From a virus: a stretch of DNA of 64,000 nucleotides. Positions 14,148 to 60,229 of this stretch are shown piece after piece. The stretch covers positions 64,001 to 128,000 of IMG/VR virus record IMGVR_UViG_3300008952_000004; one strand, given 5' to 3'. Position 1 is the stretch's first letter, and every line of letters starts with the position of its first letter. Position numbers and translations under genes: made by a program. A model generated the notes under the pieces. The model was not told the origin of the DNA, did no database searches, and saw nothing but the letters and a program-made list of their open reading frames with translations.

Positions 14148-14678
14148 ATGATTTTAGGAATGGATATTTCCACGAGCATTACAGGTATAACCGTGCTAAA
14201 TAATAATGGCGAGGTGGTGGTGTGCGATGTTTGGGATCTTCGTAAAAATAAAAACTTTTTTCAAAAGGTGGAGAACGCGAAGAGCCATCTTGAAAGAATT
14301 AAAAAGAATCAGAAAATTGAAAGGATCTTTATTGAACAGAGCCTCCAGTCGTTCAGAACCGGTTTCTCGTCGGCGCAAACGCTCTCGACGCTAGCACGAT
14401 TTAATGGAACCCTTAGTTGGTTATGTTATGAATTGTTTGATATTGAGCCTGAATTTATTAACGCGGCAACGGCTCGCAAATTATATGGTGTTAAAGTCCC
14501 ACGCGGTCAAAAAGCAAAAGAAGTTGTTTTAAAAAAAGTTCTTGACACGGAAGAGGGTTTTGTAGTAGACTATACAAGATACGGGAACCCCAAACCGGGT
14601 ACCTATGACAGAGCAGACAGCTTGGTTATTGCGAAAGCCGGATATAGAATTTGCACAGAGAAAAATATAAAATCTTAG
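14148..14678 (+). CDS. RuvC-like Holliday junction resolvase
   Basis: ILGMDISTSITG (catalytic D), FIEQ (E), DRADS (D-x-x-D): RNase H-fold resolvase pattern. Confidence 0.75.
   Translation: MILGMDISTSITGITVLNNNGEVVVCDVWDLRKNKNFFQKVENAKSHLERIKKNQKIERIFIEQSLQSFRTGFSSAQTLSTLARFNGTLSWLCYELFDIEPEFINAATARKLYGVKVPRGQKAKEVVLKKVLDTEEGFVVDYTRYGNPKPGTYDRADSLVIAKAGYRICTEKNIKS
14542..14571 (+). promoter_or_regulatory. Putative sigma70-type promoter inside the resolvase gene
   Basis: A-tract, then TTGACA-N18-TAGACT, about 80 nt before the primase start. Confidence 0.5.
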
Positions 14679-15601
14679 CAAGAGCACTGGGTACCTCATA
14701 TAAGTCTGGCGATGAGCGTCTGTACTTGTGCCCCAAGTGTAAACATCATAAAAAGAAATTATCAGTTAATATAGAATTAGATAAATTTAAATGCTGGATA
14801 TGTGAATACGCTGGACACTCTTTGAAGAAACTCATAAGAGACTTCGGCAGTCACGACTGCAACCAAAAGTGGGATTTAATTGACAGCGAGAATATTGACC
14901 TTTCAGCGTTTAAAAACATTTTTAAAGATGAGGCACAGGAATCGCCACAGCACAGAGTAGAACTCCCTCAAGAGTTTCAGACTTTGACTGGCAAGACATC
15001 GCTTCTGTCATCACCCGCAAAGAAATATCTTCAAAATCGCGGCATTTCTAAAAGGGACATCATCAGGTGGAAGGTCGGGTTTTGTCCTACAGGCGAATAT
15101 AAGGGGCGTATAATAATACCGTCTTTTTCTTTGGAAGGGGACCTTAACTATTTTGTCGCAAGGAGTTATAATGGTAATTGGAAGAAGTACATGAATCCTC
15201 CTGCGTCTAGAGATATTATATTTAATGACTTGATGATAAATTGGGATTCTGATATTGTTTTAGTTGAGGGAGTCTTTGACGCCTTGGTAGCAGGAACAAA
15301 TTCGATCCCCTTGTTGGGATCCCAGATTAAAGAAGGTTCAGTATTGTTTCAAAAGATTATTGATAAAAAACCAAAAGTTTATCTGGCTTTAGATCCAGAT
15401 ATTGAAAAAAAATCAGCAAAAATAATCAAAAAAATGTTGACATATGGCGTCGAACTTGCTAAAGTAGAGATTAAACCATATTCAGACGTCGGAGAGATGT
15501 CAAGGGAAGAGTTTCAGCGTCGGAAGTCCTCCGCAGTATCTCTTTCTACCTCATTTGTGGATTATTTTTCTTATTTGTTAGGACACACGGTTAAAATATG
15601 A
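14651..15601 (+). CDS. dnaG: DNA primase (Zn finger + TOPRIM)
   Basis: CPKC...CWIC zinc site, GRIIIP, VLVEGVFDA, LALDPD; TTG start. Confidence 0.85.
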   Translation: MHREKYKILARALGTSYKSGDERLYLCPKCKHHKKKLSVNIELDKFKCWICEYAGHSLKKLIRDFGSHDCNQKWDLIDSENIDLSAFKNIFKDEAQESPQHRVELPQEFQTLTGKTSLLSSPAKKYLQNRGISKRDIIRWKVGFCPTGEYKGRIIIPSFSLEGDLNYFVARSYNGNWKKYMNPPASRDIIFNDLMINWDSDIVLVEGVFDALVAGTNSIPLLGSQIKEGSVLFQKIIDKKPKVYLALDPDIEKKSAKIIKKMLTYGVELAKVEIKPYSDVGEMSREEFQRRKSSAVSLSTSFVDYFSYLLGHTVKI

Positions 15602-18600
15602 AGTTTGCACACATAGCTGATACACATATCAGAAATTTGAAATATCATTACGAGTATAGGGCAGTGTTTGAGAAACTCTACGAACACCTCCGCGCCGAAA
15701 AGGTAGACTATATTATTCATTGTGGCGACATTGCACACACTAAGACGCAGATTTCTCCGGAATTTGTCGAGATGTGTGCCAAATTCCTTGGGAACCTGGC
15801 TGATATCGCCCCAACCTATGTAATTTTGGGTAATCACGACGGAAATCTGAAGAATTCCAGCCGTCAGGACGCACTTTCACCGATTGCAGAGGCTTTGGAC
15901 CATAAAAACCTCCATTTGTTGAAGAATTCGGGCGAAACTGAGCTAAAAGACGGGTTTACTCTCAATGTTTTGTCTGTTTTTGACACAGACAACTGGGTAA
16001 AGCCCACTCCCGGTGGAGATCGGGTCAATATTGCTCTATACCATGGCTCAGTAAGCGGTTGCCAGACGGATACGGGCTGGACAATGGATTATGGCGAGAA
16101 TGACATCAGTATCTTCGACAATCACGACTATGCTTTCTTGGGAGACATCCATAAAACAGACCAGTCATTGGACAAGGAAGGTCGCATTCGGTATCCGGGC
16201 TCCACGGTCCAACAAAACCACGGAGAAACCAACGACAAGGGGTTTTTAATTTGGGATATTAAAAATCGCGATGATTATATTTGCAAACACATTGTTTTGG
16301 AGAACCCCAAGCCGTTTGTTACGATTGAAATGACCCCAAAAGGTCGCGTACCCAAAGGGACAGAGGTACCAGAAGGTGCGCGCATTAGATTGGTGTCCAA
16401 CAACAACCTTCCTCTTGATAGGATGCGCCGAGCAGTCGATGTAGTTAAAACGAGATTTAAACCGGAATCAATTACTTTTTTAAATCGTGCCGCTGGCGAG
16501 CGAGGTTCCGTTGAGGACCTTACAGACGGACTACAGCAGGAGGACTTGCGAGATATTGCAGTGCAAGAAGAACTTATCGCTGAATACCTGAAGGACTATC
16601 AAGTAGAGGATGAAACGCTGCAACGGGTGTTTGCAATGAACGAGAAATATAATTCTAAGGCAGAAGAAAATGAAGAAGTAGCTCGCAATGTGAATTGGAA
16701 ACTAACCTCTTTGGAATGGGACAATCTTTTTAACTATGGAGAGGGCAACCGAATTGATTTTACAAATTTAAGTGGCATTGTTGGGATATTTGGTAAGAAC
16801 TTCTCTGGGAAATCAAGTATCATTGATAGTTTTTTATATACCTTATTTAATTCAACTTCGAAGAACGTTAGAAAGAATTTAAACATTATCAACCAAACAA
16901 AAGAGTTTGGTAGTGGTAAGGTTACGATTGAAATTGGCAATAAAGAATATGTTGTTGAGAGAGACTCCGAAAAATATACCAAAAGACTTAAAGGGGAAGA
17001 AACAACAGAAGCAAAGACAAATACCAATTTTATAAGTAAGGATCATGTTCTACAAGAAGAGGTTAGTTTAAATGGATTGACAAGGGCAGATACCGACAAG
17101 GCTATTCGCAGGGTCTTTGGTGGTTTAGATGATTTTCTTTTAACCGCAATGTCTTCTCAGTTGGGTTCTTTGGCATTTATTAGTGAAGGTTCGACAAGAC
17201 GTAAGGAGATTCTTGCAAAGTTTCTCGACTTGGAAATATTTGATAAAAAATATAAATTGGCACACAATGACGCTGCTGATTTGAGAGGGGCACTGAAGCG
17301 CCTGGAGGAAAGAAACTTTGATGAGGAACTAGTCGAGGCTCGCCAACTATTATTTGAAAACGAAGCCAAGAGCCTGGGTCACAAGAACGCTTGCAAGAAT
17401 ATTAAGAGGAAGATAACCAAAGCACAGAAGCTTGTAACCAACCTTCAAGAGTCGATTGACGCGGTACCAGGGGAGCCAATAAATATCAAGAATGTGGAAA
17501 GGCTCCGAGAGGAGTTGATTAACTCTTTAAAAAAATACGAACAAAAAAATACAACAAATCAAAAAAATATTGAAAAAAATAATATTTTTATTGAAAAGGC
17601 AAAGAGTTTTCTTAGGGATTTCGATATAGAAAAATTAGAAGAAAAACAGCAAATTGAAAAATCCAAGAAGCAGGAACTGGATCAAATAAACAAGTCCTTG
17701 ACAGAAGAGTCTAGAACCCACGAACTGTATTGTAATCGTGCTAAAACCCTTGAAGGGGTTCCTTGTGGGAATCAGTTTGTTACTACTTGCAAGTTTATAA
17801 AAGATGCCTATAGTGCATCAAAACTGATTGATTCTGTCGCAGATAACATTGCTGAACTAGAGGGTAATACCAAGAAGATAGAACAAGAGGTCGTCGAACT
17901 TGACATGGATTCAGTTCGAACTTATATAAAAAAACATAAGGAGTTGCTTGACAAGAAAACCAAAGTAGAGAATGATAATGTCAAGCTTCGACTTGGCATA
18001 GAAAGAAGTAACAACCAAATCTTACAGGATACCAGTAGTTTAGAGAATTGTCAAGAAAAAATAGATTATTATTATGAAAACAAGACAGCAATTGAAAACT
18101 ATAATGTTCTTTTGAATCAAAAGGAAGATGCACTTATAAGTATTCGAGAATTGGAATGTTCGCTAGAAGAATGTGAAAATGAAGTGCTTGAACTTTATAA
18201 GATTCATGGTTCATACGAACAAAATATAATTAACCTTGAACAGTTGAAAGAAGAGCTTCAGCAACATAGGCAGTCCTATGAGGCATATGATCTATATTTG
18301 AAGTGTATGAATAGCAATGGAATCGCTTATGACATTATTAAAAAAAGGCTGCCTGTTATTAATAATGAGATCGCTAAAGTTCTAACCAATATAGTTAACT
18401 TTGACGTTTTCTTGGAAAATGATGGAAGAAAGCTGGACATATATATAAAGCACCCAAGATTTGAGCCAAGACCGCTGGAGTTGGGATCCGGCGCCGAGAA
18501 AACTATTTCGGCTATGGCTATCCGCCTAGCCTTACTCAGTGTATCGTCTTTGCCAAAGGGGAATGTCTTTATTCTTGATGAGCCGGGTACGGCATTGGAT

Positions 18601-18756
18601 GAAGACAATATGGAAGGGTTTGTTCGTATTTTAGATATGGTCAAAGATTATTATAAGACTGTGTTACTTATTAGTCATTTGGACAGTCTTAAAGATTGTG
18701 TCGACACTCAAATAGTTATCGATAAAAAAGATGGATTTGCTTTTATTAACCAGTGA
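15598..18756 (+). CDS. Mre11/SbcD nuclease fused to Rad50/SbcC ATPase (gp47-gp46-like)
   Basis: ADTH, GD, GNHD, HG and GDIH phosphoesterase motifs; Walker A GKNFSGKSS, long coiled coil, signature LGSGAE, Walker B ILDEP, H-loop LISH, all in one ORF. Confidence 0.9.
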   Translation: MKFAHIADTHIRNLKYHYEYRAVFEKLYEHLRAEKVDYIIHCGDIAHTKTQISPEFVEMCAKFLGNLADIAPTYVILGNHDGNLKNSSRQDALSPIAEALDHKNLHLLKNSGETELKDGFTLNVLSVFDTDNWVKPTPGGDRVNIALYHGSVSGCQTDTGWTMDYGENDISIFDNHDYAFLGDIHKTDQSLDKEGRIRYPGSTVQQNHGETNDKGFLIWDIKNRDDYICKHIVLENPKPFVTIEMTPKGRVPKGTEVPEGARIRLVSNNNLPLDRMRRAVDVVKTRFKPESITFLNRAAGERGSVEDLTDGLQQEDLRDIAVQEELIAEYLKDYQVEDETLQRVFAMNEKYNSKAEENEEVARNVNWKLTSLEWDNLFNYGEGNRIDFTNLSGIVGIFGKNFSGKSSIIDSFLYTLFNSTSKNVRKNLNIINQTKEFGSGKVTIEIGNKEYVVERDSEKYTKRLKGEETTEAKTNTNFISKDHVLQEEVSLNGLTRADTDKAIRRVFGGLDDFLLTAMSSQLGSLAFISEGSTRRKEILAKFLDLEIFDKKYKLAHNDAADLRGALKRLEERNFDEELVEARQLLFENEAKSLGHKNACKNIKRKITKAQKLVTNLQESIDAVPGEPINIKNVERLREELINSLKKYEQKNTTNQKNIEKNNIFIEKAKSFLRDFDIEKLEEKQQIEKSKKQELDQINKSLTEESRTHELYCNRAKTLEGVPCGNQFVTTCKFIKDAYSASKLIDSVADNIAELEGNTKKIEQEVVELDMDSVRTYIKKHKELLDKKTKVENDNVKLRLGIERSNNQILQDTSSLENCQEKIDYYYENKTAIENYNVLLNQKEDALISIRELECSLEECENEVLELYKIHGSYEQNIINLEQLKEELQQHRQSYEAYDLYLKCMNSNGIAYDIIKKRLPVINNEIAKVLTNIVNFDVFLENDGRKLDIYIKHPRFEPRPLELGSGAEKTISAMAIRLALLSVSSLPKGNVFILDEPGTALDEDNMEGFVRILDMVKDYYKTVLLISHLDSLKDCVDTQIVIDKKDGFAFINQ

Positions 18757-35388: not shown

Positions 35389-37221
35389 ATGTCTGTTTTA
35401 GAAAAACTCACAGAAGGTATTGTTAACCGTTCCCTCGCCAAAGATGGTCAGGCACTTCTCAATAAATGGGAAAATACTGGTCTTTTGGAGGGGTTAGGTA
35501 ACGACACTACCAAGAATAGTATGGCTTGTCTCCTAGAGAATCAAGCCAAGGAGCTTCTCCGAGAAGCTTCAGCCATGTCACAGGGTGACGTGGAAGGGTT
35601 CGCAGCAGTTGCGTTCCCAATCGTCCGTCGCGTATTCGGTGGACTTATTGCTAACGACCTCGTTAGCGTTCAGCCTATGAGCTTACCCTCTGGTCTGATC
35701 TTTTTCCTTGACTTCCAACACACTGATAGCCGGTTGCAGTTCTCTGCTGGGGACTCTATCTATGGTGGTGGAAAGGTAGCCAAGGGTATTGTCGATGGTG
35801 TTAGCACCACTGGCGGGTTCTATGATCTGTCTAACGGCTATGCTTCTCCGACTGGTTCTGTGCTGCTGGCCATCGCTGGTGGTGGTTCTGGTGACCCCGA
35901 CCCGGCAGATATGGCTGACAACGAGATCAATGATGGTGCGACTGCGGCGAACGCTTGCTTCACACAGGCGACTGGTCACACCATTGCTGCCCTCAACAAC
36001 GCTCAGAAGAAAGCGATTCGCTGGGATCCTGACGTGCTCGGCGATTCGGACACTACGAAGGAGGTTACCTCTGTAATTGTTAAGCTTGGAACGTCTGAAA
36101 TGGCAGAGCTAAACGCGGACCAGTTGACTTCTTGCGTGCTTCGCACCACGGCTGAAGGCTCAACCGTATCGGTTAATGGTCTTAGTGGCGATTCGTATTT
36201 GCGTCGACTGACCCATCTCGGTTATTACGACGTCAATGGCGATCTCGTCGCCGGTTCTAAGGATCAGTTCCTTTCGATGTACATTCTTTCGACGGCTGGT
36301 TCACTGGCGCTCTCGGGCGATCAGTTCCTGCACTTCGCTCGTAAGGATGCGTTTGCGGCTGGCGGCGCCACTGGTGCGGTCGTGGGCGCTGACGGTTGGG
36401 GTCTTGAGGGTCGCACCAACTCTCCGGCTTCTGATCTTTCCAGCGCCGATTTGAACACTCGTATCCCTGAGATCGACATCAAGGTAGACAGCATCGCTGT
36501 GACTGCCGTGACGAAGAAGCTCAAGGCTAAGTGGACTCCGGAGTTGGGACAGGATCTCAACGCCTATCACAACCTTGACGCTGAGGTTGAGTTGACTGGT
36601 ATTCTCTCCGAGCAGATTGCTCTTGAGATTGATCAGGAGATTCTCAACGATCTCGTTCAGGGAGCCACGGCTGGCACACTCTATTGGAGTCGCCGCCCCG
36701 GTCAGTTTGTAGATCCTGAGACTGGCGCAAGCATCACAAGTGCAACCGCACCTCCGGACTTCACCGGAACGGTTTCCGAGTGGTATGAGACGCTTGTTGA
36801 GACAATCAACGACGTTTCCGCTCGTATTCACCGCAAGACTCTTCGTGGTGGTGCCAACTTCCTTGTTTGTGGACCCGAGGTCGCAAACATCCTTGAGTTC
36901 ACCAGTGGTTTCCGCGCAAGCATTACCGCTGACGACGACAAAGGGACAGTTGGCGCTGTTAACGCTGGTTCAATCAGCAAGAAGTGGGATGTATGGGTTG
37001 ACCCTTACTTCCCGCGCAATGTGGTCCTTGTTGGACGTAAGGGTGGTAGCTTCCTTGAGAGTGGCTATGTGTATGCTCCTTATGTTCCTCTTCAGGTCAC
37101 ACCAACCATCTTTGGTGACGAAGATTTCCTTCCTCGTAAGGGAGTAATGACTCGTTATGCTAAGAAGATGGTTCGCCCCGACATGTATGGTCTTGTCGTG
37201 GTACGCGATCTGATTGGTTAA
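35389..37221 (+). CDS. Major capsid protein (T4 gp23-like)
   Basis: LLNKW, VQPMSLPSGLIF, KKLKAKWTPELGQDL, LDAEVELTGILSEQIALEIDQEIL, YAPYVPL, GVMTRYAKK. Confidence 0.95.
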   Translation: MSVLEKLTEGIVNRSLAKDGQALLNKWENTGLLEGLGNDTTKNSMACLLENQAKELLREASAMSQGDVEGFAAVAFPIVRRVFGGLIANDLVSVQPMSLPSGLIFFLDFQHTDSRLQFSAGDSIYGGGKVAKGIVDGVSTTGGFYDLSNGYASPTGSVLLAIAGGGSGDPDPADMADNEINDGATAANACFTQATGHTIAALNNAQKKAIRWDPDVLGDSDTTKEVTSVIVKLGTSEMAELNADQLTSCVLRTTAEGSTVSVNGLSGDSYLRRLTHLGYYDVNGDLVAGSKDQFLSMYILSTAGSLALSGDQFLHFARKDAFAAGGATGAVVGADGWGLEGRTNSPASDLSSADLNTRIPEIDIKVDSIAVTAVTKKLKAKWTPELGQDLNAYHNLDAEVELTGILSEQIALEIDQEILNDLVQGATAGTLYWSRRPGQFVDPETGASITSATAPPDFTGTVSEWYETLVETINDVSARIHRKTLRGGANFLVCGPEVANILEFTSGFRASITADDDKGTVGAVNAGSISKKWDVWVDPYFPRNVVLVGRKGGSFLESGYVYAPYVPLQVTPTIFGDEDFLPRKGVMTRYAKKMVRPDMYGLVVVRDLIG

Positions 37222-48029: not shown

Positions 48030-49031
48030 ATGTCCAAAGAACCTAAAGCGGCAGGCACACCTGGGTCCACCTCTACTAAAGCGGTGGATGCCACTAGATT
48101 TTATTCTGGTGCAAAAATACGTTTTTTTAGTATATCTCAGGGCACCAATGTGAGCTTCAAAGCATTTGTTAAAAGCTTTTCTGATAAATATGAATGTAAC
48201 TGGACTGAAACCCGTGCTTTCGGACGGATGGACCCTTTAACAACATATCAAGGTACGGGGAGAAAAATCTCAATTGAGTGGGATATTCCGTCATACAGTT
48301 TAGGAGAAGCAAGAAGAAATTTGAAGAATTGCTCAAAGTTGATTCAAGCGATGTATCCAAAATATTCTTCCACAGACGGCGCAGCTACATTGCAAACCCC
48401 GCCGTATTTTAAGGTCAAGTTTATGAATATGATAACAAATTCACGCTCATCCGGCGGCGGACAAGCTGCTACCAATGGCTTGTTCTGTACTATCGGTGGC
48501 TTTGAGTTTAATCCAGATTTTGAGGCAGGCGTATATGTGAAGGGGGGCAATATATATCCAAAAGTTATTAATGCGAGTGTTGAGATGACAATTCTACATG
48601 ACCACCTCTGTGGAGCCGGTGCGTCCAGCGGCTATAATTTTAGTTCTTTTCCGTATGGCAAGAGTAAAGCACCAATGACGCCAGAAGAGGCTCAGGAATT
48701 AGCATCAGCCACAATGCAGACGATGGCGACACTAGGTGGCGCAGGGGTTGCCGCCGACGCTGTTGCATATTCAGCCGGAACTGGTGGAGAGATCGACCCC
48801 GCCACAGCCAAAATGATGGCAGAAGCAGAGAAGGAATCAGAATCACTAGGCGCTATCGCTGCAAAAGGAGCAACGATGGGGCAGACGGAAGCACCGTTCT
48901 ATCAGAATGCACTCGATGCAATACCACAGACTAACAACGATTCCGTGGCGAAACAGGAACAAACAGCTAGCGCAGTGGAATCAGTTTTTGGTGCTGGCGG
49001 CGGTGGCGGCGCCGCCAAATATTTGGATTAG
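48030..49031 (+). CDS. Tail tube initiator/baseplate protein (gp48/gp54-like)
   Basis: Tube-like fold signature WTETRAFGRMDPLTTYQGTGRKISIEW, PPYFKVKF; follows the tape measure. Confidence 0.65.
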   Translation: MSKEPKAAGTPGSTSTKAVDATRFYSGAKIRFFSISQGTNVSFKAFVKSFSDKYECNWTETRAFGRMDPLTTYQGTGRKISIEWDIPSYSLGEARRNLKNCSKLIQAMYPKYSSTDGAATLQTPPYFKVKFMNMITNSRSSGGGQAATNGLFCTIGGFEFNPDFEAGVYVKGGNIYPKVINASVEMTILHDHLCGAGASSGYNFSSFPYGKSKAPMTPEEAQELASATMQTMATLGGAGVAADAVAYSAGTGGEIDPATAKMMAEAEKESESLGAIAAKGATMGQTEAPFYQNALDAIPQTNNDSVAKQEQTASAVESVFGAGGGGGAAKYLD

Positions 49032-49041
49032 GAGAAAACAG

Positions 49042-49377
49042 ATGCGCTATAGATTAAGAGACATGAACAATTCCTTGCAGCCGTTTTATTACGACTACAG
49101 TCAGAAACACAATAGAAGCCAATATATAACTCATTATACAACACCGGCATTCCACGTACTTGAGAGAGAAATTATCTCCGAGTTTGAGCACGTTCGGCAT
49201 ACTTGGAAGACCGGCGATAGATTATATAAGCTCGCTGAATTGCATTATAGCGATGCTGCATCTTGGTGGTTAATTGCGCTTTATAACAATAAGCCAACAG
49301 AGGCACACATTAATAACGGCGATGTAATTTTAATTCCAAAACCTGTGGGTCAGGTCCTAGCTAGGTACGGGTATTAA
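49042..49377 (+). CDS. LysM-like baseplate protein (gp53/tail X-like)
   Basis: Start reassigned to ATG 49042 (AGGAG); HTWKTGDRLYKLAELHYSDAASWWLIALYN...GDVILIP. Confidence 0.75.
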   Translation: MRYRLRDMNNSLQPFYYDYSQKHNRSQYITHYTTPAFHVLEREIISEFEHVRHTWKTGDRLYKLAELHYSDAASWWLIALYNNKPTEAHINNGDVILIPKPVGQVLARYGY

Positions 49378-52784: not shown

Positions 52785-53996
52785 ATGTCAGATATCGGTG
52801 ATTTAATAAAACAATATGCAACAGCAACCAACGCGGGTAATCATAACACTCTTGAAACATTTCTCAAGCGCGATTTTTGGGCAGCAGTTGTACCCCAATT
52901 GGGCGCACCCCTAGAACAGACTATAAATTATTGGACCCAAACCGGTGCCCTTCACGGCAAAACCTCTCCAATTGGGGATTTGTGTTATTTGTCAGAAACG
53001 AACCTGAAGCAGTTTTCCTCTCCACTCCACAAATCACAGGAAGTTGTTATGGGGGTCGATTTTGTCGTCGATGCTTTTTTAGAACTTCAGACACATTTTA
53101 TGAAAGCCCATGGACTTAAAAAGCTTAACCCCAAAGGTATATCAGCGATTCGCAATCTGGTGCCCAAAGTGGGGTGGACAAGTTTCATTAAGGGACACAA
53201 CGAACATTTAGTCTCTTTATATGATATATTTGTTACAAAACGACTCAAGGTCGATCGAAGGCATCATAAAATAAAAAATTTAGATACCTACATAAAAGAA
53301 CTCTTAGAATTTTTAATACGTTCAAGAGGATTATCTTTTATGACTATGAGTGCATATGCAACATCAAAAATTTGCCCAAACGATGTTGGCGGGTTAAAGG
53401 TGGAAATAGCAAAACTTCCAAAATATGCCGACGCTATAAAGGTAGAATGGCTACAGGATCCAAATTATAATTTTTATAAGTCTTCAGCTCAAAATCATGG
53501 GTTTATGATAGATTATAACGCTCCCTGGAGTTTAACAGCAGACATTAGGCACCCTGTAATGAGAAAACATATGGAAACTTATGGAATCATTCCGGAAACT
53601 CTTTTTGAAGAATATTACCACAACACTTCTGGATTTAATGACTTTGCAAATCTGAAAGAGTTTATTATGAGTTCATATAATGTTTATATAGAATCTTACC
53701 CAACATACCAAGAATATGAGTTATGTGCCCGTGGTGAAAATCAGAAAAGAACGATAGTAAAAAATACGTACCGCCAGCGTTTAGATCTTTTTCACCCCAA
53801 TCAGATGTATGATGACGCATACTGGTTAGAATTATATTATTTTGTGAGGCTAACTGAGATGCAGGTTAAAAAAAGCAATGCGACGTTTAATAACGATGTA
53901 AAGAAAATAATGCAAATTTATAACTATAAAGGGCTTGACAATGCTTTAAAATATGTTACTATGATACTAAAGAACACTAGAACAAAGACGTTATAG
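52785..53996 (+). CDS. Hypothetical protein
   Basis: 403 aa, AAGGAG SD. Confidence 0.6.
   Translation: MSDIGDLIKQYATATNAGNHNTLETFLKRDFWAAVVPQLGAPLEQTINYWTQTGALHGKTSPIGDLCYLSETNLKQFSSPLHKSQEVVMGVDFVVDAFLELQTHFMKAHGLKKLNPKGISAIRNLVPKVGWTSFIKGHNEHLVSLYDIFVTKRLKVDRRHHKIKNLDTYIKELLEFLIRSRGLSFMTMSAYATSKICPNDVGGLKVEIAKLPKYADAIKVEWLQDPNYNFYKSSAQNHGFMIDYNAPWSLTADIRHPVMRKHMETYGIIPETLFEEYYHNTSGFNDFANLKEFIMSSYNVYIESYPTYQEYELCARGENQKRTIVKNTYRQRLDLFHPNQMYDDAYWLELYYFVRLTEMQVKKSNATFNNDVKKIMQIYNYKGLDNALKYVTMILKNTRTKTL
53935..53962 (+). promoter_or_regulatory. Putative sigma70-type promoter with extended -10
   Basis: TTGACA-N16-TACTAT with TG before the -10; about 40 nt before the PolA-like start. Confidence 0.6.
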
Positions 53997-54003
53997 AGGT
54001 AAT

Positions 54004-55197
54004 TTGTTTTTTCAACCGTTAGATACTAAAAAAGAGTGCGCTGGTATATATGCCGATGGTAAAATACACAATGACAGCATACCTGTAGGCTTGACCGCAA
54101 CGTGGAAATATAGTTCTCATCTCGATTTGCCTTCTGTGGAGTATGCCAACTTGTATTGCGGCGGCAAATCAATAGCAGAAGTAGTACCAGATTCAAAGAG
54201 GGACAATTGGGAGCTTTTGAACAATAAGTTGCAGGCATACCTCCGAGCTTGCAATACCGCAAAGGTTGATTTAGAAGAAAACTGTTTTTTTGACATTGTG
54301 CCTGAAAAATTCTTATTGCAATATTGTGAAATGAGGAATGACGTTACTAAACACGTTATATTGAACAACAAGAAGCCCGCGAATTATGATTTCTTGTTAG
54401 AGTTAGTTAAGTTTTTATCAAAACTTAGGCACCAACACCTTAAACTTGATCTTACACCGCTCTCAAAGCTCGTGGCGCTGCCCCGTACACGCATTTTATA
54501 TAAGCGCCTTATGAAAAGATCGAGTCACTATATTGAATACGACCCGTTCAAATCTAAGACCGGTCGACTTACAACAACAAAATTAAGTTTTCCTATATTG
54601 ACATTAGATAGGAATTATCGCTCTATAATAAAACCACAGAATGATTTTTTTGTTGAGTTGGATTTTAATGCCGCAGAGCTTCGCACACTGCTGGCGCTCT
54701 CTGGCAGAGAACAACCAAAAACGGATATTCATGATTGGAACGCAAAAAATATATACCGTTCAAGCGTCCTGTCACGTGACGCTGCCAAGAAAAGAATATT
54801 TGCTTGGTTATACAATCCAAACTCTAAGGATTTCCTTCCTTCAGACGTATATGATCGAGAGAAAGTCTTGGTAAAATACTTTGACGGTAGTACAGTGACC
54901 ACTGTATTTGATAGAAACATTCCAGCCGACAATCATCATGCCTTAAATTATATTATTCAGAGTACTACAAGCGATTTGTTCTTAAAAAGAGCGCTAGAAA
55001 TTGATAAAATACTATGTAGTCAAAGCTCAAATATAGCTTTTTTACTGCACGACTCGTTGGTAATTGATTTTGCAAAGAAAGATATGGGTTTATTGAACAA
55101 CATTATAAACACGTTTAGTGACACGGATTTAGGCTCATATGTTACAAATGTTTCAGTGGGTCGCGATTATGGGAATATGAAGAGGTATAATAAATGA
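54004..55197 (+). CDS. Minimal family A DNA polymerase-like protein (polymerase domain only)
   Basis: TGRL, motif A LDFNAAELR, DIH, motif B RDAAKKRIFAWLY, ALNYIIQS, motif C LHDSL, VGRDYG; TTG start after GAGGT. Confidence 0.8.
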   Translation: MFFQPLDTKKECAGIYADGKIHNDSIPVGLTATWKYSSHLDLPSVEYANLYCGGKSIAEVVPDSKRDNWELLNNKLQAYLRACNTAKVDLEENCFFDIVPEKFLLQYCEMRNDVTKHVILNNKKPANYDFLLELVKFLSKLRHQHLKLDLTPLSKLVALPRTRILYKRLMKRSSHYIEYDPFKSKTGRLTTTKLSFPILTLDRNYRSIIKPQNDFFVELDFNAAELRTLLALSGREQPKTDIHDWNAKNIYRSSVLSRDAAKKRIFAWLYNPNSKDFLPSDVYDREKVLVKYFDGSTVTTVFDRNIPADNHHALNYIIQSTTSDLFLKRALEIDKILCSQSSNIAFLLHDSLVIDFAKKDMGLLNNIINTFSDTDLGSYVTNVSVGRDYGNMKRYNK

Positions 55198-56030
55198 GCG
55201 GTGTCATAGGCTTAGGATCATTTGCTTGTGAATTAGCGAATGAGTTTAAAAAATATCCCCAATATGAGGTATATAATATCTTGGTTGGAACAAAAAAAAT
55301 ATATAGAAAGCGGGCACATATCCCTCCACAGTCAACACCGGAAAAATATGAAGAAAATTGCCCGTCTTTTAAAAAACTTTTTAAAACAAATCTTCCGGAA
55401 GAAGTATTGTTTGTTGTCGACGGCACCGAGCTTGTTTCGGCAGCATCTTTAAGAATCTTATCGGAAATCAAAGACCATAAAATAACTGTTTTATATCTCA
55501 ATTCGGCATCGCGAGCACTTTCAGAAGAACAAATTTTGAATGCCCGCGCTATTCGTGGGATACTTCAAGAGTATGCAAGGTCAGGGGTTTTTGAAAAAAT
55601 AATATTTGTTGACCTTGAACTGGTTGGTACCATATTACCAGAGACAACAATTAAAAGTTATTATTCTAAGATTCGTGAAATGGTTGTATCGACGTTGCAC
55701 ATGATCGAGGTGCTTTCGAGATCAAAAAGTGTGTTGGGAAATTTATCACCACCTCACGAGACATCTCGGGTGGTGACGATAGGAATAAAAGATTTCGAAA
55801 CTGGCAAAGAAAATATGTTTTTTCCGCTTGACTTTCCGAGAGAAAAGTGTTATTTTTATGCAATCGGGAAAGAAAAGATAGAAACCGACACAACGCTTAT
55901 GAAGAAGATTAAGGAACAAGCAGAGCAAGAAAAGACCACTCAGGTGAAACGCTCATATGGTGTCTATTCTACAGACTATGAAGATGATTACGTTTATGTT
56001 GTATATCGAGCTTCGGCTATACAAAAATAA
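55194..56030 (+). CDS. Divergent tubulin/FtsZ-like protein
   Basis: N-terminal VIGLGSFACELA Rossmann-type loop; strand/helix order and spacing fit the FtsZ/TubZ/PhuZ GTPase domain, but GGGTG(S/T)G is replaced by DGTELVSA. Confidence 0.45.
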   Translation: MSGVIGLGSFACELANEFKKYPQYEVYNILVGTKKIYRKRAHIPPQSTPEKYEENCPSFKKLFKTNLPEEVLFVVDGTELVSAASLRILSEIKDHKITVLYLNSASRALSEEQILNARAIRGILQEYARSGVFEKIIFVDLELVGTILPETTIKSYYSKIREMVVSTLHMIEVLSRSKSVLGNLSPPHETSRVVTIGIKDFETGKENMFFPLDFPREKCYFYAIGKEKIETDTTLMKKIKEQAEQEKTTQVKRSYGVYSTDYEDDYVYVVYRASAIQK

Positions 56031-56125: not shown

Positions 56126-56896
56126 ATGGCAATTGATTTAAAAAAGATTCAAGAAAGAAAGTTCGCTCTTGAAAATCGAGGCGGCTCAAAACAAAAAAAT
56201 GGGTTTTGGAAGCCGCAAGATGGCGAACAAACAATTCGGATTATTCCGACGGCAGACGGGGATCCGTTTAAGGATTATTGGTTCCACTATAACGTGGGCA
56301 AGAATTCTGGTTTCCTTTGTCCGAAAAAAAACTACGGAGAGGACTGTCCTGTCTGTGAATTTGCTAGCAATCTATGGCGTGAAGGCGACGATGGAAGCAA
56401 GAAGATGGCTAAATCCCTCTTTGCGCGACAACGTTTCTTCTCTCCTGTGATGGTCCGAGGAGAAGAAGCTCAGGGGGTCCGAGTCTGGGGCTATGGAAAG
56501 ATGGCGTATGAGACGCTGCTTAACCTAGTGTTAAACCCGGAGTATGGGGATATTACCGATACTGAAGCTGGGACAGATTTGGTCATGACATATGGCAAAC
56601 CTCCCGGTGGGCAATTTCCATTAACAAAGCTCACACCAAAGCGCTCAACTTCGCAATTTTGCGAGGATGTGACACCTGAACGTTGCAAAGAAATTTTGGA
56701 TGCTATTCCAAACTTTGAAGACTTGTTTGATCGCAAGACTACTTCAGACGTTCAGGCTCTATTGGATGAATTCCTGCTTTCTGATGACGATGCCGAGTCG
56801 GCATCAACTGAGACAGTAAAATATTCTTCCACAAGCGATACAGCTTCGGAAGCGAACACTGTTTCGGATGCTTTTGATGAGCTATTAGGTAGCTAG
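56126..56896 (+). CDS. Single-stranded DNA-binding protein (T4 gp32-like)
   Basis: FWKP...IRIIP, H...C...CPVC Zn site, acidic C-terminal tail. Confidence 0.82.
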   Translation: MAIDLKKIQERKFALENRGGSKQKNGFWKPQDGEQTIRIIPTADGDPFKDYWFHYNVGKNSGFLCPKKNYGEDCPVCEFASNLWREGDDGSKKMAKSLFARQRFFSPVMVRGEEAQGVRVWGYGKMAYETLLNLVLNPEYGDITDTEAGTDLVMTYGKPPGGQFPLTKLTPKRSTSQFCEDVTPERCKEILDAIPNFEDLFDRKTTSDVQALLDEFLLSDDDAESASTETVKYSSTSDTASEANTVSDAFDELLGS

Positions 56897-57454: not shown

Positions 57455-58582
57455 ATGGCAAGACCGAAGTCAGGAAAAAAAACAAAAGTTGGTAAGCTGA
57501 GCATCGCTGATATGCGCTCTCTTATTAATAAGAAGGCGGGAATTAACGTTGCACACAACCTAGCAGAGAAGAACCCGACAGAGGTGAGCGATTGGATCCC
57601 TACAGGATCTCGATGGCTAGATTCTATTATTTGTCGTGGTCATCTGGCAGGGATACCAGTAGGCAAAATCACAGAAATCGCCGGATTAGAGTCGACAGGA
57701 AAATCTTTTTTAGCAGCACAGGTTGCCGCGAACGCTCAAAAAATGGGAATCGACGTAATATATTTCGATTCAGAATCAGCGATTGATCCAGAGTTTTTGG
57801 CTCGTGGTGGCTGTGATGTTGATCGAGTATTATACGTTCAGGCTCAATCAGTGGAGTTTGTATTAGAAACCATTGAAGATCTTTTGGAGACAAATGAGAA
57901 CCGGATGCTCTTTATATGGGACTCTTTAGCGCTTACACCATCCACAACAGATGTAGAGGGGGACTTCAACCCTTTGTCATCGATGGCAGTAAAGCCAAGA
58001 ATCTTATCAAAGGGAATGTCAAAGTTGACTGTTCCAATCGCGAACAGCCAATCAACATTTCTGGTTCTTAATCAGCTTAAAACAAATATCACAAGCAACA
58101 TTGCGGAAGCGCTTACGACGCCATATTTTACGCCCGGTGGAAAGGCAATGCATTATGCGTATTCACTTCGCATTTGGCTCACGGGGCGCAAGGCGAAAAA
58201 TGCATTTGTCACGGATGAGCGCGGCTTCCGTATCGGATCTGAAGTTAAAGCCAAGATTCAAAAGTCGCGCTTTGGGACGCAAGGTCGCCAAAGTGCTTTT
58301 AAAATCCTTTGGGGTGAAGAGGTCGGAGTCCAAGACGAAGAAAGTTGGCTCGAAGCAATCAAGGGATCGGATAATTTAAAAAATGCTGGTGCTTGGTATC
58401 AGTTGGTTTATGAAGACGGCTCTGTGGATAAATTTCAAAGTGCTCATTGGCTTGATAAGCTTAAAAATGAAAAATTTAAAAATAGGGTCTTACAAATAAT
58501 GGACGAAGAAGTTATACTCAAGTTTGATAAACGCACAGGAGATGCCACAGACTTTTATGGAGATGATGAAGATGAAAAATAA
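57455..58582 (+). CDS. recA: RecA/UvsX recombinase
   Basis: IPTGS, Walker A GLESTGKS, YFDSE, IWDS, NQLK, TPGGKAMHYAYSLRI. Confidence 0.92.
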   Translation: MARPKSGKKTKVGKLSIADMRSLINKKAGINVAHNLAEKNPTEVSDWIPTGSRWLDSIICRGHLAGIPVGKITEIAGLESTGKSFLAAQVAANAQKMGIDVIYFDSESAIDPEFLARGGCDVDRVLYVQAQSVEFVLETIEDLLETNENRMLFIWDSLALTPSTTDVEGDFNPLSSMAVKPRILSKGMSKLTVPIANSQSTFLVLNQLKTNITSNIAEALTTPYFTPGGKAMHYAYSLRIWLTGRKAKNAFVTDERGFRIGSEVKAKIQKSRFGTQGRQSAFKILWGEEVGVQDEESWLEAIKGSDNLKNAGAWYQLVYEDGSVDKFQSAHWLDKLKNEKFKNRVLQIMDEEVILKFDKRTGDATDFYGDDEDEK

Positions 58583-59254: not shown

Positions 59255-60229
59255 ATGACTCCAAGAATATTAATCATCGATGCTCTTAATATGTATTTCA
59301 GAGCATATATTGTAGATCCGAGCCTATCGACCAACGGTCAGCCAATCGGCGGCACTAAGGGTTTCTTGAAAATTTTGCAAAAACTGGTGCGTGAGACGAA
59401 GCCGGATCAGGTTGTTATTGCTTGGGATGGCGCTGGTGGTTCCCAAAAACGAAAGAGTATTGATAAAAATTATAAAGAGGGGCGCAAGCCCATTCGTCTC
59501 AATCGCGAGATTCGTAATCTCTCCGAGAACGAAGAGATGGAAAATAAGATTTGGCAGCAGACTCGACTGGTAGAATATTTAAATTGCATGCCAGTATGCC
59601 AGATAATGCTGCCAGCAATTGAGGCGGATGATGTGATTGCTTATGTTGTGAGTATGTCATCTTTAAAGGGCTGGCAAAAGGTTATTGTGTCAAGTGACAA
59701 AGATTTTTATCAACTGTGCGATGGCGAAACTGTGCTGCACCGACCCATTCAAAAGGCAACTTTGAACAAACATCGTATTATAGAAGAACATGGAATTCAT
59801 CCTTTAAACTTTGCTCTCGCACGCGCCGTCTGTGGCGACAAAAGTGATAATCTTAAAGGTGTTGGGGGCGTGGGCTTGGCTACGATGTCCAAGCGGTTTC
59901 CGTTTTTGGCAGAAGAGAAGTCCTATACAATTGACGAGCTAGTTGATTATTGCGACGATTGTGAAAACAAATTAAAAGTACACCATAACATTCTCGACGG
60001 ACGTGGTATAATAGAAAAGAACTATAGATTAATGCAACTTTACTCACCGAGTATTTCACCTCAATCTAAAAAGATTATTAAACACACGGTTGAGGAGACG
60101 ACTCTGGAGTTTAATAAGACAGAGGTACTGAAGATGATGAACACAGATGGGTTTGGAGTGTTTGACTGGACAAGTCTATTTCAGACGATGCGGCGAATTG
60201 TGGCTGCGGAGGTAGCGAATGGCACTTAA
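59255..60229 (+). CDS. 5'-3' exonuclease/flap endonuclease (T4 RNase H / Pol I N-domain-like)
   Basis: IIDALN, AWDG, YKEGRK, EADD, SSDKDF, GDKSDN, GVGGVG (H3TH). Confidence 0.92.
   Translation: MTPRILIIDALNMYFRAYIVDPSLSTNGQPIGGTKGFLKILQKLVRETKPDQVVIAWDGAGGSQKRKSIDKNYKEGRKPIRLNREIRNLSENEEMENKIWQQTRLVEYLNCMPVCQIMLPAIEADDVIAYVVSMSSLKGWQKVIVSSDKDFYQLCDGETVLHRPIQKATLNKHRIIEEHGIHPLNFALARAVCGDKSDNLKGVGGVGLATMSKRFPFLAEEKSYTIDELVDYCDDCENKLKVHHNILDGRGIIEKNYRLMQLYSPSISPQSKKIIKHTVEETTLEFNKTEVLKMMNTDGFGVFDWTSLFQTMRRIVAAEVANGT

Follow-up and report, generated by a model that had tools for sequence, protein, structure and literature searches.

What could a family A DNA polymerase of 397 residues do in a phage that also encodes a complete DnaE, and is it an enzyme in its own right or a piece of one? 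The gene lies in a 64,000-nt stretch (the window) of a viral source record of 189,713 bp. The original prediction described a minimal family A polymerase without proofreading and with a reduced thumb and fingers, and proposed that it was not the main replicase but a specialised enzyme of low processivity, possibly primer-making, end-joining or template-independent, or else one half of a split enzyme.

The polymerase gene and its expression signals

The polymerase gene proposed at 54004-55197 was confirmed by the translation of the open reading frame, by Pfam and by the fold of the model. The gene, its expression signals and its immediate neighbours are as follows:

52785-53996, + strand: upstream gene of 403 aa (p403), the last of a baseplate-like block
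53935-53962, + strand: sigma-70-like promoter candidate, TTGACA-16 nt-TG-TACTAT, 10/12 match
53995-53999, + strand: Shine-Dalgarno-like AGAGG, 4 nt 5' of the TTG start, read from the sequence
54004-55197, + strand: family A DNA polymerase gene, very probably of the divPolA1 type, 397 aa, TTG start
55194-56030, + strand: tubulin/TubZ-like gene of 278 aa (p278); its ATG and the stop codon of the polymerase overlap (ATGA)

The TTG start aligns with a position that is mostly ATG in the relatives. The reading frames of the polymerase and of the upstream gene share 26 nt, and the gap between the end of the upstream gene and the polymerase start varies from -20 to +86 nt among relatives. A frameshift or a fusion with the upstream frame was ruled out, because the polymerase has a start codon of its own, in most cases ATG, at that position in the relatives.

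Could the gene nevertheless be a decaying fragment, the outcome that would have undone the original prediction? The protein database holds 3791 homologues, which form 247 clusters (50% identity, E < 1e-30) and include Tara Oceans sequences; among the matches listed, nearly all are ~395 aa long. The same gene order surrounds the polymerase in 80 related viral contigs, and a search for a longer, fused form found none, which is weak evidence. A set of 50,697 phage records, searched by megablast and tblastn with the region and its protein, gave no match at 1e-5, and cultured relatives surfaced with a profile search alone. Because thousands of homologues share the ~395-aa length and 80 viral contigs share the gene order, we conclude that the gene, constant in length and strongly conserved among its relatives, is real and is neither a fragment nor a frameshift artefact.

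The promoter candidate, which has a TG ahead of its second hexamer, lies within the final codons of the upstream gene, ~40 nt 5' of the polymerase start. A single site of this kind is weak, because the region contains 22 promoter-like sites where 11.3 would be expected. In 16 of 42 relatives, a site built in the same way was found at most 90 nt from the polymerase start, and by a rough estimate chance alone would produce one in fewer than 1 of the 42. The suggestion that the polymerase has a sigma70-type promoter of its own thus gains a candidate site with a counterpart in some relatives.

A family A fold with conserved catalytic residues

The Pfam family DNA_pol_A (PF00476) matched the protein at 38.8 bits against a curated cut-off of 34.3, and the AlphaFold2 model reached a pLDDT of 96.5. 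The best structural matches of the model were the large fragments of the Bst, Taq and M. smegmatis Pol I enzymes (Z 24-25; rmsd 3.1-4.0 Å over 355-376 residues); Pol nu was also among the matches. A structure search of BFVD returned ordinary PolAs at a TM of ~0.6 and nothing else, hence no close viral model, and neither phmmer against PDB sequences nor NCBIfam gave a match for the polymerase. Alignment of the family profile with E. coli Pol I by hhalign had a probability of 96%, and the residue equivalences given below are those of the profile alignment. The motif regions are:

54559-54621, + strand: TGRL (R188 = E. coli R668), then the family-specific SFPILxLxKxxR in place of PNLQNIP, residues 186-206
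54643-54699, + strand: motif A region (DFFVELDFNAAELR) with catalytic D220 and steric-gate E225, residues 214-232
54775-54813, + strand: motif B (O-helix) with R258, K262, F266 (762 position) and Y270, residues 258-270
55048-55068, + strand: motif C, HDSLVID, with H349, catalytic D350, S351 in place of Glu and invariant D355, residues 349-355

Both catalytic aspartates have counterparts, D220 matching E. coli D705 in motif A and D350 matching D882 in motif C, and the steric gate E225 corresponds to E710. In the O-helix, R258, K262, F266 and Y270 align with R754, K758, F762 and Y766, and elsewhere Q319 aligns with Q849 and H349 with H881. When conservation was scored over 74 diverse homologues, D220, K262, D350 and D355 were retained in all 74, and R258, Q319 and R188 in 73, with Y270 and H349 nearly invariant. 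The steric-gate residue was Glu in 58 homologues and Asp in 13, and the Phe at the 762 position was kept in 56. The conserved residues that had been picked out from the sequence (both catalytic Asp, the steric-gate Glu and the O-helix R/K/F/Y with Phe at the 762 position) could therefore all be mapped.

The two substitutions that had been noted were likewise seen in the alignment to E. coli Pol I. PNLQNIP is replaced by 'SFPILT', and S351 occupies the position of the motif C Glu, E883; among the 74 homologues, this residue is Ser in 55, Ala in 10, Cys in 5, Asn in 3 and Glu in just 1. These replacements could alter the catalytic properties in unpredictable ways. To judge from its sequence, the protein would be an active, template-dependent family A enzyme that has apparently lost proofreading.

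The exonuclease remnant and the shortened polymerase domain

Where a proofreading domain would be expected, we found only a short N-terminal segment:

54004-54180, + strand: N-terminal ~55-60 residues, a vestige of the exonuclease domain, with three short beta strands in the model

Residue 1 of the model aligns at position 316 of Bst Pol I and 305 of Taq, within the vestigial exonuclease domains of those enzymes. The segment has the consensus MxFQxLDxKxxC, with T33 and W34 nearly invariant, and its 'LDxK' may correspond to the 'DxE' of Exo I. The DEDD exonuclease families PF01612, PF00929 and PF13482 had no match across the whole genome. With no exonuclease family match and ~55 residues ahead of the polymerase domain, the reported lack of 3'-5' exonuclease motifs holds.

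The reduction of the thumb and fingers is supported by length bookkeeping rather than residue by residue. By this count, the polymerase has ~56 residues fewer than E. coli Pol I across E. coli 654-924, and a further ~25-30 fewer in the thumb and the N-terminal palm, between the exonuclease remnant and motif 2. In the model, the long helices 63-85 and 101-121 are linked by just ~15 residues.

How does this architecture compare with that of better-known enzymes? Like Taq, Bst and M. smegmatis Pol1, all bacterial Pol I enzymes whose proofreading domain is dead, the polymerase consists of a vestigial exonuclease domain followed by a polymerase domain with Phe at the 762 position. Unlike them, it keeps ~55 aa of the exonuclease remnant rather than ~130-170 aa, lacks ~85 residues of the polymerase domain, and has PNLQN replaced and Ser in place of the motif C Glu. 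It shares with bacterial Pol I the presence of a Pol I-type 5' nuclease in the genome, but here the nuclease is encoded apart from the polymerase, three genes further downstream, and the one-chain layout of Pol I (TIGR00593 / NF004397: 5' nuclease, exonuclease-like domain and polymerase) is not what we see.

The T7 gene 5 type has in common the family A fold and the catalytic motifs, yet T7 gp5 gave no score against the polymerase family profile. The polymerase described here has no active exonuclease, its residue at the 762-equivalent position is Phe and not Tyr, it shares its genome with another polymerase, and it is far too short for a thioredoxin-binding thumb insertion such as that of T7 gp5. 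The divPolA2 proteins of barbaviruses are also second, divergent, exonuclease-free PolAs that occur beside a regular polymerase, but in them a non-homologous N-terminal domain replaces the thumb, the gene context varies, and there is a resemblance to RNA polymerases (PMC11348598), whereas the present polymerase has a recognisable Pol I-like thumb and the steric-gate Glu.

Relationship to divPolA1

The closest described group is divPolA1, first reported in 2024 (Yutin, Tolstoy, Mutz, Wolf, Krupovic, Koonin, Virol J; PMC11348598) from 14 genomes, with Flavobacterium phage immuto as the type example and with the marine representatives QDP51333 and CAB4155247; the GenBank records of the marine and freshwater examples are MK892584 and LR796625. 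These polymerases keep the catalytic residues of the palm, have an inactivated or lost 3'-5' exonuclease and a truncated thumb, and are carried by immuto-like myoviruses of 155-190 kb that encode an additional 'regular' polymerase (PMC11348598). The regular polymerase belongs to family A, B or C, depending on the phage, and sits among genes for GroEL/GroES chaperonins and nucleotide metabolism (PMC11348598).

In a BLASTP comparison, the polymerase matched the divPolA1 of immuto at E 7e-10, with 26% identity over 174 aa. The family profile scored the immuto divPolA1 at 68.8 bits and a 408-aa ORF of phage Mel-JY01 at 54.1, compared with 44.6 for E. coli Pol I and 17 for the regular PolA of immuto. 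In a quick tree, the immuto divPolA1 and the Mel-JY01 protein grouped with the polymerase family, apart from the canonical PolAs (SH-aLRT 99), in an analysis that had three canonical PolA outgroups only and long branches. The capsid protein likewise has immuto, Mel-JY01 and RM378 as its nearest cultured relatives.

The shared traits extend from the protein to its surroundings: a divergent family A polymerase beside a regular one in myoviruses of 155-190 kb, with the palm catalytic residues kept, the exonuclease lost, the same replication genes downstream and the regular polymerase near chaperonin and nucleotide-metabolism genes; by length count, the thumb of the present protein would be shortened as well. 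Differences are also evident. The polymerase is shorter than that of immuto (397 versus 441 aa), its exonuclease remnant is even smaller, and the steric-gate Glu and motif C His that it retains are His and Tyr in immuto. Furthermore, the 14 genomes of the published set are far fewer than the 3791 database proteins of the marine ~395-aa subgroup. On lineage, synteny, features and the partner-polymerase context, with immuto as the type example compared, we are confident that the polymerase belongs to divPolA1.

Partner replication genes and DnaE

The polymerase heads a module of replication genes, and a primase is encoded elsewhere in the window:

14651-15601, + strand: DnaG-type DNA primase (phrog_47, E 2.2e-39)
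56126-56896, + strand: gp32-like single-strand DNA binding protein (SSB)
57455-58582, + strand: UvsX/RecA-like recombinase
59255-60229, + strand: stand-alone Pol I-type 5'-3' exonuclease / flap endonuclease (FEN), matching the N-terminal portion of NF004397 (bacterial Pol I), positions 2-244 of 889, at 134.5 bits
60219-61586, + strand: DnaB-like replicative helicase

The module thus runs from the polymerase and the tubulin-like gene through the gp32-like SSB, UvsX, the 5' flap nuclease and DnaB to ribonucleotide reductase (RNR). SSB, UvsX, FEN, DnaB and RNR genes lie downstream of the polymerase here, in the 80 contigs and in immuto, where a 441-aa family A polymerase is followed by ssb, recA, a 5'-3' exonuclease, DnaB and RNR. 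The flap endonuclease is likely to be the working partner of the polymerase.

A search of the genome for another full polymerase found a Pol III alpha of the DnaE type, complete at 1141 aa (genome 131181-134606), 12 kb downstream and just past the window. It has PHP, alpha, finger and HhH domains and matches TIGR00594 at 588 bits, and its gene is followed by those for a dUTPase, an IMPDH-like protein and Cpn60; Yutin et al. (2024) give the same surroundings for the regular polymerase. Genome family searches gave no match for PolB, for RNase_H_2 or for the C-terminal domain of DnaN, the clamp for DnaE. Five of five long related contigs checked also encode DnaE. With this complete DnaE in the genome, the proposal that the small polymerase is not the main replicase is supported.

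Proposed role and alternative explanations

What, then, might the small polymerase do? Taken as a whole, the reading that we moderately favour is that of a divPolA1-group polymerase that serves the phage as a counterpart of Pol I, the 5' nuclease having been split off, with DnaE doing the bulk of synthesis. As to its specific role, the polymerase may well perform Pol I-like, short-patch, non-proofreading synthesis together with the flap nuclease, SSB and UvsX, a possibility to which we would give even weight. DnaE would most likely carry out the bulk, processive, proofread synthesis. In this scheme the small polymerase would take the place of Pol I, filling the gaps once the flap nuclease had removed the primers (Okazaki maturation), and perhaps also extending 3' ends in UvsX/gp32 recombination intermediates. 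We infer such a division of labour between the polymerase and DnaE. The notion of a specialised enzyme of low processivity is plausible in that proofreading is lacking and the thumb and fingers appear shortened; the processivity itself is a prediction.

Could the polymerase instead be a core replisome enzyme? It might be the first to extend primers or invading 3' ends before handing off to DnaE, or might even be the main replicase. There are parallels for such a hand-off in B. subtilis (DnaE to PolC) and in eukaryotes (Pol alpha to Pol delta). The polymerase is invariant in the lineage and heads the conserved SSB-UvsX-FEN-DnaB module, whereas the regular polymerase changes family and lies among chaperonin and nucleotide-metabolism genes, and Yutin et al. 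favour a replication role for divPolA1 and deem that of the regular polymerases less obvious (PMC11348598). On the other side, an enzyme without proofreading would have to serve a 190-kb genome, its apparently shortened thumb suggests low processivity, and each of the five long relatives checked has kept a complete DnaE, so that we regard a core replisome role as rather unlikely. We hold the same reservation about a broader form of the idea, in which divPolA1 would be an invariant 'starter' polymerase that extends RNA primers or the ends of UvsX-made D-loops and then hands off to a processive enzyme of family A, B or C. If true, a starter role would explain why the main polymerase swaps families in the lineage while the small one stays constant. 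Less probable still is an enzyme for repair or lesion bypass that would act on phage DNA carrying damage or chemical modifications. Two bypass enzymes of family A, Pol nu and Pol theta, likewise lack an exonuclease and have altered motifs; Pol nu is among the structural matches, the recombination genes for UvsX and SSB lie nearby, 7-deazaguanine DNA modification occurs in related phages (immuto), and queuosine-pathway genes are found in Far-T4 contigs. However, Pfam found no TGT/DpdA-type transglycosylase in the genome, the equivalents of the high-fidelity contacts R668, Q849, H881 and Y766 are kept, and a gene that is universally conserved, always at one place in the replication module, is better suited to a housekeeping role.

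The remaining explanations concern the enzyme's integrity and its chemistry. Half of a split enzyme, with the exonuclease, the thumb or processivity supplied by p403 or p278, might be suspected from the arrangement of the genes, as both neighbours are conserved beside the polymerase in the 80 contigs, the upstream gap is a few bases or an overlap, and the downstream gene overlaps by ATGA. However, p403, which follows baseplate genes, has as its best structural matches LAS/hedgehog-peptidase folds, and these are weak (Z 6-8, a range commonly reached). It had no Foldseek match below E 0.001, lacks the conserved His ligands, and returned no nuclease family match and nothing from phmmer against PDB sequences, NCBIfam or the protein Atlas. 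On the weak peptidase-like matches and the lack of a nuclease match, p403 was rejected as the missing exonuclease. The p278 protein, for its part, is tubulin/TubZ-like, had no NCBIfam match, and has no counterpart that we could find in immuto or Mel-JY01. In addition, the polymerase has its own start codon in all relatives, and the failure to find a fused form points, weakly, the same way. We therefore consider such a half-enzyme very unlikely; what stands of the split-enzyme proposal is that the Pol I-type 5' nuclease has a gene to itself, and neither flanking gene looks like part of a polymerase. The proposed primer-making, end-joining or template-independent activity fared worst, and we judge it highly improbable. 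The sole pointers to it are SFPILxL in place of PNLQNIP and Ser in place of the motif C Glu, whereas every contact by which family A enzymes depend on template and primer is conserved, including the O-helix, the steric gate and the R668/Q849/H881 equivalents. Because the phage encodes a DnaG-type primase, a primer-making role would be unnecessary, and we know of no family A DNA polymerase that starts chains de novo.

Significance

As the family was described in 2024, the polymerase reported here widens its breadth and is not a new kind of enzyme. Its carriers, large T4-like phages that are uncultured, are abundant in marine metagenomes, with thousands of near-full-length copies of the polymerase in the protein database. 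Enzyme engineers might also take an interest in so compact a polymerase (~395 aa), naturally free of exonuclease and with a confident model. The replication machinery of the carrier is a hybrid, in which a T4-like chassis (SSB and UvsX) goes together with DnaE, DnaB and DnaG of bacterial style and with a split Pol I. The function of the small polymerase would reveal how such a replisome divides its labour, and it might explain how the main polymerase has come to be exchanged between families.

A Conserved Gene at the Structural/Replication Boundary

The family A polymerase gene and its surroundings are laid out as follows (window coordinates).

52785–53996, + strand: 403-aa ORF, upstream of the polymerase
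53935–53962, + strand: sigma70-type promoter candidate by sequence match, TTGACA-16 nt-TACTAT with TG before the second hexamer
54004–55197, + strand: ORF with a TTG start, family A DNA polymerase gene, 397 aa
55194–56030, + strand: 278-aa gene, downstream of the polymerase with an ATGA overlap and next to it in relatives

The upstream ORF stops 7 nt before the polymerase start, in a different frame, and the polymerase stop overlaps the ATG of the next gene. In relatives, the upstream gene and the polymerase are separate, with gaps of −20 to +86 nt; therefore, a frameshifted fusion of the two was ruled out. The TTG start is genuine: the homologues in 80 related contigs begin at the same aligned position, mostly with ATG.

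Could the gene be a decaying fragment, without conservation in relatives? This possibility, raised with the original prediction, is contradicted by a word-index search that returned 3791 homologues (nearly all ~395 aa among the matches listed), by an exhaustive search of 50%-identity representatives that gave 247 clusters below 1e-30, and by a gene order shared by the 80 contigs inspected, which runs from baseplate-like genes through the 403-aa gene, the polymerase, and the 278-aa gene to SSB, UvsX, and the flap nuclease. These comparisons indicate a real, well-conserved gene rather than a relic.

The neighboring proteins also argue against the suggestion that the polymerase is half of an enzyme split with one of them, as one reads as structural and the other as tubulin/TubZ-like. 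The 403-aa protein had no family match and no PDB sequence match. Its model (pLDDT 87.8) had no Foldseek match below E 0.001, and its top twelve VIA-align matches were all LAS/hedgehog-type peptidase folds at Z 6–8, a range in which scores are common; no His metal ligands were found among the conserved residues of the family. The protein carries a conserved motif, GFxVDxNAPWRLVADL, and is 376–531 aa long among relatives, where Gly-rich or basic tails occur. Given the weak fold matches and a baseplate wedge subunit gene nearby (48907–49377, two genes further upstream), we rejected it as a polymerase part and read its gene as the last of the structural (baseplate-like) block. The 278-aa protein is predicted to be tubulin/TubZ-like, its modeled structure reaching TM 0.86 to the TubZ/tubulin cluster in an Atlas comparison; it had no significant Pfam family and no counterpart in Flavobacterium phage immuto or Microcystis phage Mel-JY01.

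The polymerase had also been credited with its own sigma70-type promoter. A candidate site does precede the gene, although in such AT-rich DNA a single match of this kind is weak evidence. Of 42 relatives, 16 have a site of this form ≤90 nt from where the polymerase begins, against fewer than one expected by chance on a rough estimate, which makes a promoter at the boundary between the structural and replication modules plausible in part of the family. Other relatives have a strong ribosome-binding site alone at this boundary. The promoter-like TTGAC(A/T)...TAnnnT often coincides with the codons for "LD...YI", a conserved C-terminal motif of the upstream protein (here at 53935–53962, and in related contigs L009, L018, L021, L022, L039, and others), suggesting a dual coding and regulatory constraint. 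In L008, another related contig, the stretch at ~5930–6000 just upstream of the polymerase start resembles a tRNA gene by eye, instead of a promoter-like site.

Fold and Active Site

Pfam DNA_pol_A scores the polymerase at 38.8 bits, barely above the cut-off of 34.3. An AlphaFold2 model of very high confidence, with an alignment of 74 diverse homologues as input (pLDDT 96.5, pTM 0.93), matched bacterial Pol I large fragments over its whole length; against Bst, 376 of the 397 residues aligned at 3.6 Å with Z 25 (model 1–393 corresponding to Bst 316–876). As the alignment begins at Bst residue 316, Taq residue 305, and M. smegmatis Pol1 residue 343, the first ~55 residues lie within the vestigial exonuclease domain of these enzymes, and the remainder is a compacted polymerase domain. 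The reduction of thumb and fingers that had been claimed is suggested by length counts, with ~56 fewer residues in the region equivalent to E. coli 654–924, mainly in the fingers (profile alignment), and roughly 25–30 fewer, by subtraction of lengths, in the thumb and N-terminal palm.

Polymerase residues and their E. coli Pol I equivalents, taken from the profile alignment
R188 = R668, D220 = D705, E225 = E710, R258 = R754, K262 = K758, F266 = F762
Y270 = Y766, Q319 = Q849, H349 = H881, D350 = D882, S351 = E883

The mapped residues are invariant or nearly so in the 74-sequence alignment. PNLQNIP of Pol I is replaced by SFPILT; motif C has Ser, Ala, or Cys as its third residue in 70 of the 74 sequences and Glu in just one, and D355, five residues past the catalytic Asp, is invariant. 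Family searches detected no DEDD exonuclease anywhere in the genome. The original description (family A, its motifs, no exonuclease, Ser in motif C) thus held in each checkable detail, and the sequence shows an intact active site of the template-dependent family A type, without proofreading.

The Virus and the Kinship of Its Polymerase with divPolA1

The IMG/VR virus record (189,713 bp, bases 64001–128000 forming the window) is rated complete by CheckV. It is a T4-like myovirus with genes for a large terminase, a portal, a capsid protein of the gp23 type, and a tail sheath, together with a DnaG-type primase, gp32-like SSB, UvsX, 5′-3′ flap nuclease, DnaB, and ribonucleotide reductase. The closest cultured relatives of the capsid protein are immuto, Mel-JY01, and Rhodothermus phage RM378, the cultured reference for the "Far-T4" neighborhood (Roux et al. 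2015).

Several other genes were observed. The 610-aa major capsid protein (35389–37221) is matched by gp23-type families only at residues 344–593 plus a short N-terminal piece, and its tblastn hits fall into two segments that together cover ~60%; a large insertion or extra domain is therefore probable. The primase gene (14651–15601) overlaps by 4 nt a 1052-aa ORF directly downstream (15598–18756), a predicted fused gp47/gp46-type nuclease in which phage families place the SbcD-like part at residues 1–375 and the SbcC-like part at 312–1047. In other stretches of the record, a 396-aa ORF matching the RuBisCO large-chain catalytic domain (Pfam E 4e-32; L098:13253-14443, genome 33253–34443) sits amid glycosyltransferases, sugar epimerases, and dehydratases, and a phage-encoded ClpX-like ATPase carries a C4 zinc finger (L099:18339-19730, genome 164339–165730).

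Searched with the polymerase-family profile, the immuto genome has a matching 441-aa ORF (E 2.6e-20) right at its start, and Mel-JY01 has one of 408 aa. The ORF in immuto carries a family A polymerase annotation and is followed by ssb, recA, 5′-3′ exonuclease, DnaB, and RNR; a regular PolA of 777 aa, adjoining GroES and GroEL, is also encoded by immuto. Yutin et al. 2024 (PMC11348598) named this protein type divPolA1, with the catalytic palm retained, the thumb truncated, the exonuclease domain inactivated, and conserved replication genes downstream, the regular polymerase lying near chaperonins and nucleotide-metabolism genes. The polymerase here likewise keeps the catalytic residues, lacks an exonuclease, and precedes replication genes, and the regular polymerase (here DnaE) lies near a dUTPase, an IMPDH-like gene, and Cpn60. 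The family profile scores immuto divPolA1 above both E. coli Pol I and immuto's regular PolA, and a quick tree, with few outgroups and long branches, agrees. By comparison with the immuto and Mel-JY01 sequences, our polymerase is a new member of divPolA1, a family published in 2024.

Proposed Division of Labor with DnaE

Is the small polymerase the main replicase? The original prediction held that it is not, and proposed a search for a full PolA or PolB. No family B polymerase or second PolA was found in the genome; instead, a complete DnaE is encoded by a 1141-aa ORF 3.2 kb past the window end (genome 131181–134606; L087:3181-6606 in the adjoining stretch), with PHP, Pol III alpha, finger, and HhH domains (TIGR00594, 588 bits). 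It is followed by the dUTPase, an IMPDH/GMP-reductase-like gene, a zeta-toxin-like kinase, and the Cpn60 chaperonin. A DnaE of ~1150 aa is encoded in all five long related contigs, which supports the claim; a search of the genome for a DnaN C-terminal domain found none. The small polymerase is conserved at the head of an SSB-UvsX-FEN-DnaB module, in genomes that also have a complete DnaE and a primase. DnaE would be expected to carry out bulk DNA synthesis, and the small polymerase would be the phage's Pol I, split from its 5′ nuclease; the nuclease, a separate gene, has its match to bacterial Pol I confined to the N-terminal part. The small polymerase would act in filling the gaps left once primers are removed, and perhaps also in extending recombination intermediates.

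In the main rival reading, the small polymerase would belong to the replication core as a "starter" or lagging-strand enzyme, or would even be the principal replicase. The gene-context argument of Yutin et al. 2024 (PMC11348598) allows this. The enzyme might also serve in repair or bypass. Roles in primer-making, template-independent synthesis, or end-joining, also proposed originally, have the altered motifs as their one point in favor, and the intact family A active site and the presence of a primase speak against them. As the predicted function of this gene, a further member of divPolA1, we favor the split Pol I reading.
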